From assembly GCF_030013595.1 (NCBI RefSeq), contig NZ_CP122768.1: DNA of 64,000 bases; one strand, 5' to 3'. The notes under the pieces were generated by a model. It saw only the letters and a program-made list of their open reading frames with translations, was not told the origin of the DNA and searched no databases. The DNA is from Escherichia coli (GTDB lineage Bacteria; Pseudomonadota; Gammaproteobacteria; Enterobacterales; Enterobacteriaceae). The position numbers and the translations under genes were made by a program. Position 1 is the first letter of the stretch. Every line of letters begins with the position of its first letter. Shown one piece after another: positions 17,331-25,472 of the stretch.

Positions 17331-17400
17331 AACAGCCCTTCCACCTGAAATTAATTTTAAAAAGGGGCTAACAGCCCCTTTTTTGTCAGGAGAATTTATT

Positions 17401-17802
17401 ATGGCGAAAGAATTTGGTCGCCCGCAGCGTGTAGCGCAGGAAATGCAAAAAGAGATCGCTCTCATCCTGCAGCGTGAAATTAAAGATCCTCGTCTGGGCA
17501 TGATGACCACCGTTTCCGGTGTCGAAATGTCTCGCGACCTGGCGTATGCCAAAGTATATGTAACGTTCCTCAACGACAAAGATGAAGATGCGGTTAAAGC
17601 GGGCATCAAAGCGTTGCAGGAAGCTTCTGGTTTCATCCGCAGCCTGCTGGGTAAAGCGATGCGCTTGCGTATCGTGCCGGAACTGACCTTCTTCTACGAC
17701 AACTCGCTGGTTGAAGGGATGCGTATGTCAAACCTGGTGACCAGCGTGGTCAAACATGACGAAGAACGTCGTGTTAACCCGGACGACAGCAAGGAGGACT
17801 AA
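17401..17802 (+). CDS. rbfA: Ribosome-binding factor A
   Basis: Start placed at [20 protein letters not shown] (133 aa); its stop overlaps the truB ATG by 1 nt. Confidence 0.93.
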
Positions 17803-18746
17803 TGAGTCGTCCTCGTCGTCGCGGTCGCGACATTAACGGCGTTTTGTTGCTGGATAAACCGCAGGGTATGTCCAGCAACGATGCGCTGCAAAAAGTGAAA
17901 CGGATTTATAACGCCAACCGTGCCGGGCATACCGGTGCGCTGGACCCGCTGGCAACTGGCATGTTGCCAATTTGCCTCGGGGAAGCGACGAAGTTTTCCC
18001 AGTATCTGCTGGACTCCGACAAACGCTATCGGGTGATTGCGCGTCTTGGACAGCGTACCGATACGTCTGACGCCGATGGACAAATCGTTGAAGAACGTCC
18101 GGTAACCTTTAGCGCAGAGCAACTGGCGGCGGCGCTGGATACTTTCCGTGGCGATATCGAACAGATCCCTTCGATGTATTCAGCACTGAAATACCAGGGC
18201 AAAAAACTGTACGAATATGCGCGTCAGGGCATTGAAGTACCGCGTGAAGCGCGCCCGATTACCGTTTATGAATTGCTGTTTATTCGCCACGAAGGCAATG
18301 AGCTGGAGCTGGAAATTCACTGCTCAAAAGGCACTTATATCCGCACCATCATTGATGACCTGGGTGAAAAACTCGGTTGTGGCGCGCATGTTATTTACCT
18401 GCGTCGTCTGGCGGTAAGTAAATATCCGGTTGAACGGATGGTGACCCTGGAACATCTGCGTGAACTGGTTGAACAAGCCGAACAGCAGGATATTCCAGCC
18501 GCGGAGTTACTTGATCCATTACTGATGCCAATGGACAGTCCAGCTTCGGACTACCCGGTGGTGAATCTTCCGTTAACGTCTTCTGTTTACTTCAAAAATG
18601 GTAACCCGGTTCGTACATCCGGTGCGCCGCTGGAAGGACTGGTTCGCGTTACAGAAGGTGAGAACGGCAAGTTTATCGGTATGGGCGAAATTGACGATGA
18701 AGGCCGCGTCGCGCCTCGTCGCCTGGTGGTTGAATACCCGGCGTAA
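17802..18746 (+). CDS. truB: tRNA pseudouridine-55 synthase
   Basis: 314-aa ORF; catalytic-Asp region [11 protein letters not shown]. Confidence 0.95.
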
Positions 18747-18798
18747 TGTTAACCGTCTTGCGATAACAGGTCGCTACGAGTAGAATACTGCCGCTTAA

Positions 18799-19164
<366 letters not shown>

Positions 19165-19180
19165 TTCTTGCGAGTTTCAG

Positions 19181-19208
19181 AAAAGGGGGCCTGAGTGGCC
19201 CCTTTTTT
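19181..19208 (+). terminator. rpsO terminator
   Basis: aaaagggggcc-tgagt-ggcccctttttt. Confidence 0.65.
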
Positions 19209-19211
19209 CAA

Positions 19212-19410
19212 GCTGACGGCAGCAATTCACTGGAAACTAATGTATTGTTGCTATGAATGATCTTCCGTTGCAGAGGTTCGCGCGGCTAATGAGAGGCTTT
19301 ACCCACATTGGGCTGGGTTAGGGTTGTCATTAGTCGCGAGGATGCGCAGAAGATCGGGTATTAACACCAGTGCCGTAAGGTACTGTCTAAGAAAGAGAAA
19401 GGATATTACA
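19212..19410 (+). promoter_or_regulatory. pnp promoter and 5' leader (autoregulatory, RNase III-processed region expected here)
   Basis: 199-nt untranslated region between the rpsO terminator and the pnp start; the function is from established knowledge of the rpsO-pnp locus, the processing site itself was not mapped. Confidence 0.4.
19215..19390 (-). ncRNA. sraG: Possible SraG/PsrO-type antisense sRNA opposite the pnp leader
   Basis: Location only; an sRNA divergent from pnp is described at this locus in K-12, but I could not verify its sequence or ends. Confidence 0.25.
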
Positions 19411-21546
19411 TTGCTTAATCCGATCGTTCGTAAATTCCAGTACGGCCAACACACCGTGACTCTGGAAACCGGCATGATGGCTCGTCAGGCTACTGCCGCT
19501 GTTATGGTTAGCATGGATGACACCGCGGTATTCGTTACCGTTGTTGGCCAGAAAAAAGCCAAACCAGGTCAGGACTTCTTCCCACTGACCGTTAACTATC
19601 AGGAGCGTACCTACGCTGCTGGTCGTATCCCGGGTAGCTTCTTCCGTCGTGAAGGCCGCCCAAGCGAAGGCGAAACCCTGATCGCGCGTCTGATTGACCG
19701 CCCGATTCGCCCGCTGTTCCCGGAAGGCTTCGTCAACGAAGTTCAGGTTATCGCCACCGTGGTTTCTGTTAACCCGCAGGTTAACCCGGATATCGTCGCG
19801 ATGATTGGTGCTTCCGCAGCACTGTCTCTGTCTGGTATTCCGTTCAATGGTCCGATTGGTGCTGCCCGCGTAGGTTACATCAATGACCAGTATGTACTGA
19901 ACCCGACTCAGGACGAGCTGAAAGAGAGCAAACTGGATCTGGTTGTTGCGGGTACTGAAGCCGCTGTACTGATGGTTGAATCTGAAGCTGAACTGCTGAG
20001 CGAAGACCAGATGCTGGGCGCAGTAGTGTTCGGTCATGAACAACAGCAGGTTGTTATTCAGAACATCAATGAACTGGTGAAAGAAGCCGGTAAACCGCGT
20101 TGGGACTGGCAGCCGGAGCCGGTAAACGAAGCGCTGAACGCGCGCGTTGCTGCACTGGCTGAAGCTCGTCTGAGCGATGCTTACCGCATCACCGACAAAC
20201 AAGACCGTTATGCGCAGGTTGATGTCATCAAATCTGAAACCATCGCGACGCTGCTTGCTGAAGATGAAACCCTGGACGAAAACGAACTGGGTGAAATTCT
20301 GCACGCTATCGAGAAAAACGTTGTTCGTAGCCGCGTACTGGCAGGCGAACCGCGTATCGACGGTCGTGAAAAAGATATGATTCGTGGTCTGGATGTGCGT
20401 ACTGGCGTGCTGCCGCGTACTCACGGTTCTGCGCTGTTCACCCGTGGTGAAACGCAGGCACTGGTTACTGCAACGCTGGGTACCGCTCGTGACGCACAGG
20501 TTCTTGATGAACTGATGGGCGAACGTACCGACACCTTCCTGTTCCACTACAACTTCCCTCCGTACTCCGTAGGCGAAACCGGCATGGTCGGTTCTCCGAA
20601 ACGTCGTGAAATTGGCCACGGTCGTCTGGCGAAGCGCGGCGTGCTGGCAGTCATGCCGGATATGGACAAATTCCCGTACACCGTACGTGTGGTGTCTGAA
20701 ATCACCGAATCCAACGGTTCCTCTTCTATGGCTTCCGTGTGCGGCGCGTCTCTGGCGCTGATGGACGCAGGTGTGCCAATCAAAGCTGCCGTTGCGGGTA
20801 TCGCAATGGGTCTGGTGAAAGAAGGCGACAACTACGTTGTACTGTCTGACATTTTGGGCGACGAAGATCACCTGGGCGATATGGACTTCAAAGTTGCAGG
20901 TTCCCGCGACGGTATCTCTGCACTGCAGATGGATATCAAAATTGAAGGTATCACCAAAGAGATCATGCAGGTTGCGCTGAACCAGGCTAAAGGTGCGCGT
21001 CTGCATATCCTGGGCGTAATGGAACAGGCGATCAACGCGCCGCGTGGCGATATCTCTGAGTTCGCACCGCGTATCCATACCATCAAGATCAACCCGGACA
21101 AGATCAAAGACGTTATCGGTAAAGGCGGTTCTGTTATCCGTGCTCTGACCGAAGAAACTGGCACCACCATCGAAATCGAAGATGACGGTACTGTGAAAAT
21201 CGCAGCGACCGACGGCGAGAAAGCGAAACATGCTATTCGTCGTATCGAAGAGATCACTGCAGAAATCGAAGTGGGCCGCGTCTACAATGGTAAAGTGACC
21301 CGTATCGTTGACTTTGGCGCATTTGTTGCCATCGGCGGCGGTAAAGAAGGTCTGGTACACATCTCTCAGATCGCTGACAAACGCGTTGAGAAAGTGACCG
21401 ATTACCTGCAGATGGGTCAGGAAGTACCGGTGAAAGTTCTGGAAGTTGATCGCCAGGGCCGTATCCGTCTGAGCATTAAAGAAGCGACTGAGCAGTCTCA
21501 ACCTGCTGCAGCACCGGAAGCTCCGGCTGCTGAACAGGGCGAGTAA
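19411..21546 (+). CDS. pnp: Polynucleotide phosphorylase
   Basis: Start placed at the TTG giving (M)[20 protein letters not shown] (711 aa); RNase PH, KH and S1 domains recognisable. Confidence 0.93.
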
Positions 21547-21557
21547 GGTTGCCATTT

Positions 21558-21584
21558 GCCCTCCGCTGCGGCGGGGGGCTTTTA
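21558..21584 (+). terminator. Hairpin after pnp
   Basis: ccctccgc-tgcg-gcggggggcttt; a weaker T tract follows. Confidence 0.4.
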
Positions 21585-21654
21585 ACCGGGCAGGACGCCT
21601 TGTTAGCAACCGGGAACAGGACGTTCATTCAACCGTGGTCTTCGGGAGTGGGAA

Positions 21655-22539
21655 ATGAAGCCTTTTTTGCGCTGGTGTTTCGTTGCGACAGCACTTACGC
21701 TTGCAGGATGCAGTAATACTTCCTTGCGTAAAAGTGAAGTCCTCGCGGTACCATTGCAACCGACTTTACAGCAGGAAGTGATTCTGGCACGTATGGAACA
21801 AATCCTTGCCAGTCGGGCTTTAACCGATGACGAACGCGCACAGCTTTTATATGAGCGCGGAGTGTTGTATGATAGTCTCGGTCTGAGGGCATTAGCGCGT
21901 AACGATTTTTCGCAAGCGCTGGCAATCCGACCGGATATGCCTGAAGTATTCAATTACTTAGGCATATATTTAACGCAGGCAGGCAATTTTGATGCTGCCT
22001 ATGAAGCGTTTGATTCTGTACTTGAGCTTGATCCAACTTACAACTACGCGCACTTGAATCGCGGGATCGCATTATATTACGGCGGTCGTGACAAGTTAGC
22101 GCAAGATGATCTGCTGGCGTTTTATCAAGACGATCCCAATGATCCTTTCCGTAGTCTGTGGCTTTATCTCGCCGAGCAGAAGCTCGATGAGAAGCAGGCT
22201 AAAGAAGTGTTGAAACAGCACTTCGAAAAATCGGATAAGGAACAGTGGGGATGGAACATTGTCGAGTTCTACCTGGGCAACATTAGCGAACAAACGTTAA
22301 TGGAAAGGCTCAAGGCGGACGCAACGGATAACACCTCGCTCGCTGAGCATCTCAGTGAAACCAACTTCTATTTAGGTAAGTACTACCTAAGTCTGGGGGA
22401 TTTGGACAGCGCCACGGCACTGTTCAAACTGGCGGTTGCCAACAACGTTCATAACTTTGTTGAGCACCGATACGCATTGTTGGAATTATCGCTCCTGGGC
22501 CAGGACCAAGATGACCTGGCAGAATCGGACCAGCAATAG
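21655..22539 (+). CDS. nlpI: Lipoprotein NlpI (TPR repeats)
   Basis: 294-aa ORF with lipobox LTLAGC and TPR-like repeats. Confidence 0.93.
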
Positions 22540-22645
22540 CTGACGTACACATCAGCCCGTAATCTTTTTTGATTGCCATCACCTTAACGGGTGAGGGCGT
22601 TGTTGTTCGTTAATACACCTACTTTGAGCCGGTTCACACTTTTCA

Positions 22646-22726
22646 ATGAAAATTGCTGATCAATTTCATGATGAGTTATGTAGACTGGCCGCCATTAATT
22701 TTGAGGCACACGTACTACATGGCTGA
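22646..22726 (+). CDS. yrbN: 26-codon small ORF in the deaD leader, overlapping the deaD start (YrbN-like)
   Basis: atg aaa att gct gat ... cat ggc tga = [26 protein letters not shown]; matches my recollection of the 26-aa K-12 small protein YrbN; below the ORF-track length cutoff. Confidence 0.45.
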
Positions 22727-24608
22727 ATTCGAAACCACTTTTGCAGATCTGGGCCTGAAGGCTCCTATCCTTGAAGCCCTTAACGATCTGGGTTACGAAA
22801 AACCATCTCCAATTCAGGCAGAGTGTATTCCACATCTGCTGAATGGCCGCGACGTCCTGGGTATGGCCCAGACGGGGAGCGGAAAAACTGCAGCATTCTC
22901 TTTACCTCTGCTGCAGAATCTTGATCCTGAGCTGAAAGCACCACAGATTCTGGTGTTGGCACCGACCCGCGAACTGGCGGTACAGGTTGCTGAGGCAATG
23001 ACGGATTTCTCTAAACACATGCGCGGCGTAAACGTGGTTGCCCTGTACGGCGGCCAGCGTTATGACGTGCAATTACGCGCCCTGCGTCAGGGGCCGCAGA
23101 TCGTTGTCGGTACTCCGGGCCGTCTGCTGGATCACCTGAAACGTGGCACTCTGGACCTTTCTAAACTGAGCGGTCTGGTTCTGGATGAAGCTGACGAAAT
23201 GCTGCGCATGGGCTTCATCGAAGACGTTGAAACTATTATGGCGCAGATCCCGGAAGGTCATCAGACCGCTCTGTTCTCTGCAACCATGCCGGAAGCGATT
23301 CGTCGCATAACCCGCCGCTTTATGAAAGAGCCGCAGGAAGTGCGCATTCAGTCCAGCGTGACTACCCGTCCTGACATCAGCCAGAGCTACTGGACCGTCT
23401 GGGGTATGCGTAAAAACGAAGCACTGGTACGTTTCCTGGAAGCGGAAGATTTTGATGCGGCGATTATCTTCGTTCGTACCAAAAACGCGACTCTGGAAGT
23501 GGCTGAAGCTCTTGAGCGTAACGGCTACAACAGCGCCGCGCTGAACGGTGACATGAACCAGGCGCTGCGTGAACAGACTCTGGAACGCCTGAAAGACGGT
23601 CGTCTGGACATCCTGATTGCGACCGACGTTGCGGCCCGTGGCCTGGACGTTGAGCGTATCAGCCTGGTGGTTAACTACGATATCCCGATGGATTCTGAGT
23701 CTTACGTTCACCGTATCGGTCGTACCGGTCGTGCGGGTCGTGCTGGCCGCGCGCTGCTGTTCGTTGAGAACCGCGAGCGTCGTCTGCTGCGCAACATTGA
23801 ACGTACTATGAAGCTGACTATTCCGGAAGTAGAACTGCCGAACGCAGAACTGCTGGGCAAACGCCGTCTGGAAAAATTCGCCGCTAAAGTACAGCAGCAG
23901 CTGGAAAGCAGCGATCTGGATCAATACCGCGCACTGCTGAGCAAAATTCAGCCGACGGCAGAAGGTGAAGAGCTGGATCTCGAAACTCTGGCCGCCGCAC
24001 TGCTGAAAATGGCACAGGGTGAACGTACTCTGATTGTTCCGCCAGATGCGCCGATGCGTCCGAAACGTGAATTCCGTGACCGTGATGACCGTGGTCCGCG
24101 CGATCGTAACGACCGTGGCCCGCGTGGTGACCGTGAAGATCGTCCGCGTCGTGAACGTCGTGATGTTGGCGATATGCAGCTGTACCGCATTGAAGTGGGC
24201 CGCGATGATGGTGTTGAAGTTCGTCATATCGTTGGCGCGATTGCTAACGAAGGTGACATCAGCAGCCGTTACATCGGTAACATCAAGCTGTTTGCTTCTC
24301 ACTCCACCATCGAACTGCCGAAAGGTATGCCGGGTGAAGTACTGCAACACTTTACGCGCACTCGCATTCTCAACAAGCCGATGAACATGCAGTTACTGGG
24401 CGATGCACAGCCGCATACTGGCGGTGAGCGTCGTGGCGGTGGTCGTGGTTTCAGTGGCGAACGTCGTGAAGGCGGTCGTAACTTCAGCGGTGAACGCCGT
24501 GAAGGTGGTCGTGGTGATGGTCGTCGTTTTAGCGGCGAACGTCGTGAAGGCCGCGCTCCGCGTCGTGATGACTCTACCGGTCGTCGTCGTTTCGGTGGTG
24601 ATGCGTAA
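22719..24608 (+). CDS. deaD: Cold-shock DEAD-box RNA helicase DeaD (CsdA)
   Basis: Start placed at [13 protein letters not shown] (629 aa); motifs [28 protein letters not shown] repeats in the C-terminal tail. Confidence 0.93.
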
Positions 24609-24651
24609 TCATCGCTGAACAGCGAACACAATCTGTAAAATAATATATACA

Positions 24652-24681
24652 GCCCCGATTTTTACCATCGGGGCTTTTTTG
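24652..24681 (+). terminator. deaD terminator
   Basis: agccccgat-ttttacc-atcggggctttttt. Confidence 0.6.
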
Positions 24682-24685
24682 TGCA

Positions 24686-25392
24686 CAGAAAACCCCCAGC
24701 TAGGCTGGGGGTTCCGGAAAGCTTTCAGCTTTGAGCCAGTTATTAAAACCCCTTTTGATTTGTTAAAACACCTTGCGGTCTGGCAACTGCAAGTGTCAAA
24801 CAAGAAATCAAAAGGGGGTCCCAATGGGGGACGAAAAGAGCTTAGCGCACACCCGCTGGAACTGTAAATATCACATAGTTTTTGCGCCGAAATACCGAAG
24901 ACTGGCGTTTTACGGAGAGAAGCGTAGGGCGATAGGCAGTATTTTGAGAAAGCTGTGTGAGTGGAAAAGCGTACGGATTCTGGAAGCAGAGTGCTGCGCA
25001 GATCATATCCATATGCTTGTGGAAATCCCACCCAAAATGAGCGTATCCGGCTTTATGGGATATCTGAAAGGGAAAAGCAGTCTGATGCTTTACGAGCAGT
25101 TTGGGGATTTGAAATTCAAATACAGAAACAGGGAGTTCTGGTGCCGAGGGTACTATGTCGATACGGTGGGTAAGAACACGGCGAAGATACAGGACTACAT
25201 AAAGCACCAGCTTGAAGAGGATAAAATGGGGGAGCAGTTATCGATTCCATATCCGGGCAGCCCGTTTACGGGCCGTAAGTAACGAAGTTGAATGCAAATG
25301 TCAGATCGTATGCGCCTGTTAGGGCGCGGCTGGTAACAGAGCCTTACAGGCGCATTTGAAAAACCTCCGGCTATGCCGGAGGATATTTATTC
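24686..25392 (+). mobile_element. IS200 insertion sequence (IS200/IS605 family), about 0.7 kb, boundaries approximate
   Basis: Contains an intact 152-aa TnpA nearly identical to my recollection of Salmonella IS200 TnpA; a perfect hairpin ccccagc-tag-gctgggg (24694-24712) and a second stem ccccttttgatt...aatcaaaagggg that would sequester the tnpA RBS are the IS200 left-end hallmarks; no terminal inverted repeats, as expected for this family. Confidence 0.8.
24824..25282 (+). CDS. tnpA: IS200 transposase TnpA (HUH Y1 single-strand transposase)
   Basis: MGDEKSLAHTRWNCKYHIVFAPKYRR...HIHMLVEIPP...: HxH (HUH) motif and catalytic Tyr region; 152 aa. Confidence 0.9.
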   Translation: MGDEKSLAHTRWNCKYHIVFAPKYRRLAFYGEKRRAIGSILRKLCEWKSVRILEAECCADHIHMLVEIPPKMSVSGFMGYLKGKSSLMLYEQFGDLKFKYRNREFWCRGYYVDTVGKNTAKIQDYIKHQLEEDKMGEQLSIPYPGSPFTGRK

Positions 25393-25400
25393 CTGTCTTT

Positions 25401-25423
25401 TGTACTCATGTACTGGTACAGTG
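25401..25423 (+). promoter_or_regulatory. TrpR-operator-like element at the mtr promoter
   Basis: tGTACTcatGTACTGGTACAGtg; repeated GTAC half-sites resemble the CTAG/GTAC-based TrpR operator, about 50-70 bp upstream of the mtr ATG; mtr is a known TrpR/TyrR target. Confidence 0.4.
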
Positions 25424-25472
25424 CAATGCATAACAACGCAGTCGCACTATTTTTCACTGGAGAGAAGCCCTC

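Follow-up and report, generated by a model that had tools for sequence, protein, structure and literature searches.

The deaD-mtr intergenic region of an Escherichia coli genome (RefSeq assembly GCF_030013595.1, contig NZ_CP122768.1) raises a question of regulation: when an insertion sequence comes to lie between the activator sites and the core promoter of the tryptophan permease gene mtr, which regulators does mtr still answer to? We analysed a 64,000-nucleotide stretch of this contig (hereafter the window), in which the gene order is that of the E. coli nlpI-deaD-mtr-yhbW locus. Its deaD-mtr intergenic region measures 864 bp, compared with 153 bp in K-12 MG1655, and the excess is exactly one element (864 = 153 + 711). 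A complete IS200 separates the TyrR boxes from the mtr core promoter; the T-run of the deaD terminator precedes it and the -35 hexamer follows (Table 1). The original prediction for this DNA had named a TyrR-box-like 18-mer, the deaD terminator, an IS200 and a GTAC-repeat element here, and all four are present where it placed them. We sought regulatory features for the deaD-mtr region in the MG1655 RefSeq record and found none annotated, and our full-text literature search returned no report of an IS200 insertion at deaD/mtr.

The inserted element and the promoter beside it

Alignment to the empty sites of K-12 and HCP5S3_I2 set the ends of IS200 to the nucleotide, and the same boundaries were found in aligned copies at other loci; in E. 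coli, many copies share 100% identity across exactly 711 bp. The empty site of HCP5S3_I2, in which GGGGCTTTTTT is joined directly to CCTGTC, is identical to the flanks in the window, and the insertion is therefore seamless, without a target-site duplication and without terminal inverted repeats. The element carries the features of the IS200 group, namely a Y1 TnpA, subterminal hairpins at both ends and a structured 5'UTR, and the other ORFs inside it, all of which overlap tnpA or an IS end, have no known match. With the Salmonella and E. coli IS200 (IS200/IS605 family) it shares a lone 152-aa Y1 transposase, the left-end terminator hairpin, the STnc490/5'UTR structure, the paired subterminal hairpins and the lack of both inverted repeats and duplication, and it differs from the Salmonella element in length (711 vs. 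707 bp). This copy is complete and apparently transposition-competent.

Table 1. Positions in the window of the genes, regulatory sites and IS200 components at the deaD-mtr locus
Feature	Position	Strand	Evidence
deaD (DEAD-box RNA helicase), CDS	22719..24608	+	ORF; start as annotated by RefSeq in HCP5S3_I2, whose region is 99.97% identical
Candidate weak (distal) TyrR box CGTAATCATCGCTGAACA, overlapping the deaD stop codon	24604..24621	.	8/12, with G2 and C17; top match upstream of the strong box
Predicted strong (proximal) TyrR box TGTAAAATAATATATACA	24634..24651	.	Consensus match 11/12, position, conservation
deaD intrinsic terminator, 9-bp stem and T6 run; IS200 target	24651..24680	+	Hairpin 24651-24675; DNA fold -9.7 kcal/mol, z = -5.05
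IS200, 711 bp, co-oriented with deaD and mtr	24681..25391	+	Empty-site alignments, shared ends, identical copies
IS200 left-end hairpin	24691..24713	+	Fold -11.7 kcal/mol, z = -4.0
tnpA 5'UTR / STnc490 (art200) region	24691..24814	+	Rfam RF01405, 146.4 bits, E = 1.5e-31, full length
tnpA, 152-aa Y1 (HUH) transposase, intact	24824..25282	+	Pfam Y1_Tnp PF01797, E = 9.1e-37, model positions 2-121 of 121
IS-borne TyrR-box-like 18-mer TGGTAACAGAGCCTTACA	25331..25348	.	9/12 (3 mismatches), with G2 and C17
IS200 right-end hairpin CCTCCGGCTATGCCGGAGG with ATATTTATT tail; terminator-like on both strands	25364..25391	+	Fold -10 kcal/mol, z = -3.7
Putative mtr -35 hexamer CTGTCT, weak, activator-dependent type	25393..25398	+	18-bp spacer to TACAGT (permissive scan)
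TrpR operator GTACTCATGTACTGGTAC	25402..25419	.	GTACT-containing palindrome over promoter spacer and -10; core GTACTnnnGTACTGGTAC in 71/71 loci
mtr -10 hexamer TACAGT	25417..25422	+	TACAGT or TACAAT at the matching position in other listed loci
mtr, tryptophan permease, 414 aa, intact	25473..26717	+	ORF; annotated mtr in HCP5S3_I2

The insertion places two extra terminator-like hairpins between deaD and mtr. Nucleotides 12-34 of IS200, which match the left-end hairpin, have been described as a terminator that works in both directions and stops transcription coming in from outside (PMC4513863), and at the right end the hairpin proper folds from 25364 to 25382. The Rfam STnc490 match at 24691-24814 falls on the tnpA-sense strand, whereas published work (PMC4513863) has art200/STnc490 running antisense to the 5'UTR of tnpA; the mismatch may stem from the strand that was chosen for the Rfam seed. 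Rfam matches to Ysr202, SpF11 and anti-hemB were discarded, as their scores lay far under the gathering thresholds.

The mtr core promoter begins almost at once: the -35 hexamer starts 2 bp and GTACTCATGTACTGGTAC 11 bp past the right end of IS200, and the -35, the operator, the -10 and the 5'UTR are all intact next to the element, just as had been proposed for the TrpR operator and the core promoter. Transcription of mtr would start near 25429-25430. The order and the sequences of the regulatory elements are those of K-12, with nearly identical flanks and an intact operator and core promoter; what sets the window apart is the 711-bp IS that separates the boxes from the -35. At two positions the region also differs from K-12 by a point change (T to C at 25392 and G to A at 25408), and IS-free relatives have both. 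The change at 25392 is ruled out as a consequence of the insertion, since the IS-free sister genome HCP5S3_I2 has it as well. The operator change at 25408 is common to about 220 E. coli genomes, SMS-3-5 and ST648 strains among them, and falls at the operator position that is most variable between genera; we therefore ruled out that it is a compensatory mutation, as these approximately 220 genomes are IS-free.

TyrR boxes upstream of the insertion and their conservation

Whether the insertion matters for mtr depends on whether the upstream 18-mer is indeed a TyrR box that acts on this promoter. TGTAAAATAATATATACA matches the consensus TGTAAA-N6-TTTACA (with G2 and C17) at 11 of 12 positions, and the 64-kb window contains no other site with at most two mismatches. 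Note that at least one such site arose in 93 of 100 shuffles, so the count is not significant, and the argument for the box is carried by its position and its conservation. As to position, PMC4374768 describes a promoter-proximal strong TyrR box at mtr, its centre 42 bp ahead of the -35, and a weak box farther upstream; when the IS is subtracted from the window, the distance from the centre of the 18-mer (24642.5) to the centre of CTGTCT, our putative -35, is exactly 42.0 bp. As to the weak box, the best candidate upstream of the strong one is CGTAATCATCGCTGAACA, which is separated from it by a 12-bp gap. This gap would equal the published "8 bp" provided that the boxes had been counted as 22-mers; taken literally, a gap of 8 bp leads to an 18-mer that matches at just 2 of 12 positions, which we rejected. 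No positional conservation of the weak box was found across genera in the Enterobacteriaceae mtr loci compared. A full-text literature search for the 18-mer TGTAAAATAATATATACA itself returned no match.

To examine conservation, we collected mtr loci from 80 species and analysed 71 of them. Of the 71 Enterobacteriaceae species, 68 have a box of one type (YGTAAAGTAAnAnATACA), with at most three mismatches, whose start precedes the first GTACT of the TrpR operator by 56-58 bp. This spacing persists although the lengths of the 5'UTR differ; in the window, the corresponding distance is 768 bp (57 + 711). The predicted box of the window is directly followed by the deaD terminator hairpin, and in the genera examined this hairpin and its T-run always lie between the box and the -35. 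Across Enterobacteriaceae, the deaD terminator is thus embedded within the mtr regulatory region, with the TyrR box on one side of it and the -35 on the other. The loci of Cedecea neteri, Enterobacter sp. Cy-643 and Shimwellia keep the terminator and the TrpR operator, and have no TyrR-box-like sequence where the box is conserved elsewhere (5-7 mismatches).

Together, a secondary description of the mapping and this conservation support the identification of TGTAAAATAATATATACA as one of the TyrR boxes that activate mtr. The original prediction had hinged on this identity, and the published 42-bp position, the placement of both boxes upstream and the conservation across genera all speak for it. 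Compared with the K-12 mtr TyrR boxes, the strong box and the candidate weak box of the window both lie upstream of the insertion, so the objection that they might instead map downstream of 25392, still adjacent to the promoter, falls away. The displacement had been estimated at about 0.7 kb, and the box-to-promoter distance in the window is indeed 753 bp.

Predicted consequence for mtr regulation

We reasoned that the arrangement would affect the two regulators of mtr unequally. IS200 inserted without duplication directly 3' of the deaD terminator T-run, its usual kind of target, and thereby shifted both TyrR boxes; the strong one had stood about 42 bp from the -35 and now lies 753 bp upstream of it. 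At mtr, TyrR works by class I activation, touching the alpha C-terminal domain of RNA polymerase from a well-placed upstream box; Phe/Tyr activation would be expected to be lost, and basal transcription and repression by TrpR and tryptophan would be kept. Published work on TyrR points the same way, in that TyrR activates only from a strong box suitably placed ahead of the -35, by way of the alpha C-terminal domain (PMC7142922, PMC4374768), and the outcome depends on the position of the box (PMC6524683). Class I geometry asks for a site that the alpha C-terminal domain can reach, on the correct helical face upstream of the -35. Because a strong box 753 bp from the -35 does not have this geometry, loss of Phe/Tyr activation is the likely result, a prediction drawn from box distance and TyrR mechanism. 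As a whole, the reading that an IS200 next to the terminator T-run displaces the boxes, ends Phe/Tyr activation of mtr and spares TrpR repression has in our estimate a probability of about 0.75. Since TyrR is reported to activate mtr by a small factor (about 1.7-2.8 fold; PMC4374768), the effect on mtr expression may be modest.

A neutral insertion is the first alternative to be weighed: IS200 might have been drawn to the T-run and left mtr expression unchanged, be it that TyrR is a minor input, that looping bridges the distance, or that the 18-mer at 25331-25348 within the IS stands in for the native box. Such neutrality would suit the strong targeting bias (9 of 9 IS200 copies adjoin a T-run), a published activation of merely about 2-3 fold, and a right end that restores a hairpin and an A/T-rich tail beside the -35, resembling the native context. 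However, the spacing between box and operator, constant to within 1 bp across genera, argues that position matters, and we know of no TyrR activation across about 750 bp without an architectural protein, which weighs against action over such a distance here. The IS-borne 18-mer also enters on this side of the balance, as a 9/12 TyrR-like site whose centre lies 56 bp from that of the -35. Yet this is 14 bp (~1.3 helical turns) beyond the native box distance and hence out of register with it, and sites with three mismatches occur at chance frequency (24 found vs. 25.4 expected). Moreover, weak boxes are bound only alongside a strong box, by tyrosine-bound hexameric TyrR (PMC6524683), and TyrR binding to them needs tyrosine (PMC7142922), a dependence that further disfavours rescue by a site of this kind. 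TGGTAACAGAGCCTTACA is therefore probably a chance match, and we consider a regulatory-neutral insertion unlikely. Every copy of this IS200 carries the same 18-mer.

The original prediction had added that any outward transcription from IS200 would read into mtr, and this part fared poorly. On such an account, transcripts running on from tnpA, or starting at an outward promoter in the right end, would take the place of the native control of mtr and raise or de-regulate its expression, as the co-orientation of tnpA and mtr would permit; a TTGAAA-17-GAGGAT match (25356-25384, 8/12) with a good -35 would place a start near the IS end. Against this, a stricter scan (at least 9/12) returned no promoter-like site in the right part of the IS, the candidate -10 sits inside the GC-rich right-end hairpin, and this hairpin with its ATATTTATT tail is terminator-like. 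In addition, the promoter of tnpA has little intrinsic strength, and it was through a polar insertion that IS200 was first recognised (PMC4513863); neither fits an element that drives its downstream neighbour. With a terminator-like right end, a weak tnpA promoter and a single 8/12 match, we hold IS200-driven mtr expression to be quite improbable, and it is at most conceivable that the weak IS-internal promoter-like match, or TGGTAACAGAGCCTTACA, acts as a compensating element. A further promoter-like match at 24616-24644 was set aside as being at chance level (1 found vs. 1.3 expected).

Returning to the predicted loss of TyrR input, the event is clearly defined yet of an ordinary type, the disruption of a promoter by an IS, and a new instance without a new mechanism. 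IS1 and IS5 insertions upstream of bgl or flhDC alter promoter control by moving regulatory sites away or bringing new ones in. The mtr insertion is alike in that a mobile element in an intergenic region changes which regulators act; it differs in that the predicted change is the loss of an activator input, not relief of silencing or the gain of an outward promoter. If the prediction is true, this strain and a clade of 16 genomes described below carry a natural mtr allele that answers to tryptophan (through TrpR) and not to Phe/Tyr (through TyrR), and the near-isogenic, IS-free HCP5S3_I2 and LCP30S3_I5 would provide a clean natural test of the position dependence of TyrR.

History of the insertion and choice of the site

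The window and HCP5S3_I2, an isolate from pig faeces in the UK, differ by 15 SNPs in 49.3 kb, with IS200 as the sole indel; from 17349 to 27874 there are zero differences besides IS200, and the 7.6 kb from 25392, mtr included, are 100.0% identical. The empty site is present in two near-identical pig isolates, HCP5S3_I2 and LCP30S3_I5 (99.97% identity to the window strain, with window positions 1-50058 compared), and since such close sister genomes have it, the insertion in the window can be taken to be recent, as judged from these alignments. The lineage is otherwise rare: every other complete genome has 98.8% identity or less over 25392-33000.

The same junction has been used elsewhere. Sixteen of 5426 complete genomes (e.g. 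FDAARGOS_448, KY 1497, Survcare321 and PEC1020) carry a 711-bp element, IS200C, at the identical nucleotide (after the sixth T of the terminator) and in the same orientation. The IS200 of the window differs from IS200C at 27 of 711 positions (3.8%), with four amino-acid changes in TnpA, and in the flanks 20 of 1500 and 47 of 1490 positions distinguish the two lineages. Over the 10 kb downstream, the IS200C lineage is essentially identical to many IS-free genomes. The differing IS alleles and flanks, together with the IS-free relatives of each lineage, point to two independent IS200 insertions at deaD-mtr. An ancient insertion followed by repeated precise loss was rejected as less parsimonious, given that each lineage has near-identical IS-free relatives and that the IS alleles are 3.8% apart.

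Such recurrence could reflect selection, if decoupling the uptake of tryptophan and indole from Phe/Tyr signalling were advantageous and two lineages had fixed IS200 there for that reason. The independence of the two events, in IS allele and in flanks alike, and the near-identical IS-free relatives of each IS-bearing lineage are what this account would expect. Yet the T-run specificity of the element suffices for reuse of the site, merely 16 of the 5426 complete genomes carry the IS200C insertion, and no phenotype is known, so positive selection seems to us improbable. Similarly slim is the chance that convergent regulatory evolution by a normally near-dormant IS is at work, in which loss of the TyrR input to tryptophan and indole uptake would be adaptive in some gut niches.

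Target choice by T-run is the simplest explanation of site reuse, and a likely one. We compared IS200 copies at eight loci (deaD, amtB, purL, ybiJ, fdnI, fadR, sseA and emrB), and in all nine copies the left end adjoins a T-run (TTTT, TTATT or TTGTT) belonging to the intrinsic terminator of an upstream, co-oriented gene. This pattern agrees with the rule for the family, by which the left end inserts 3' of a short, element-specific target (PMC5027513). The T-run preference means that IS200 can damage a downstream promoter wherever the terminator of the upstream gene sits in a regulatory region. The right end of IS200 is itself a hairpin followed by ATATTTATT, and hence mimics the target of the element. 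A-runs lie 5' of both IS200 hairpins, and these could, by analogy with IS608, serve as guide sequences.
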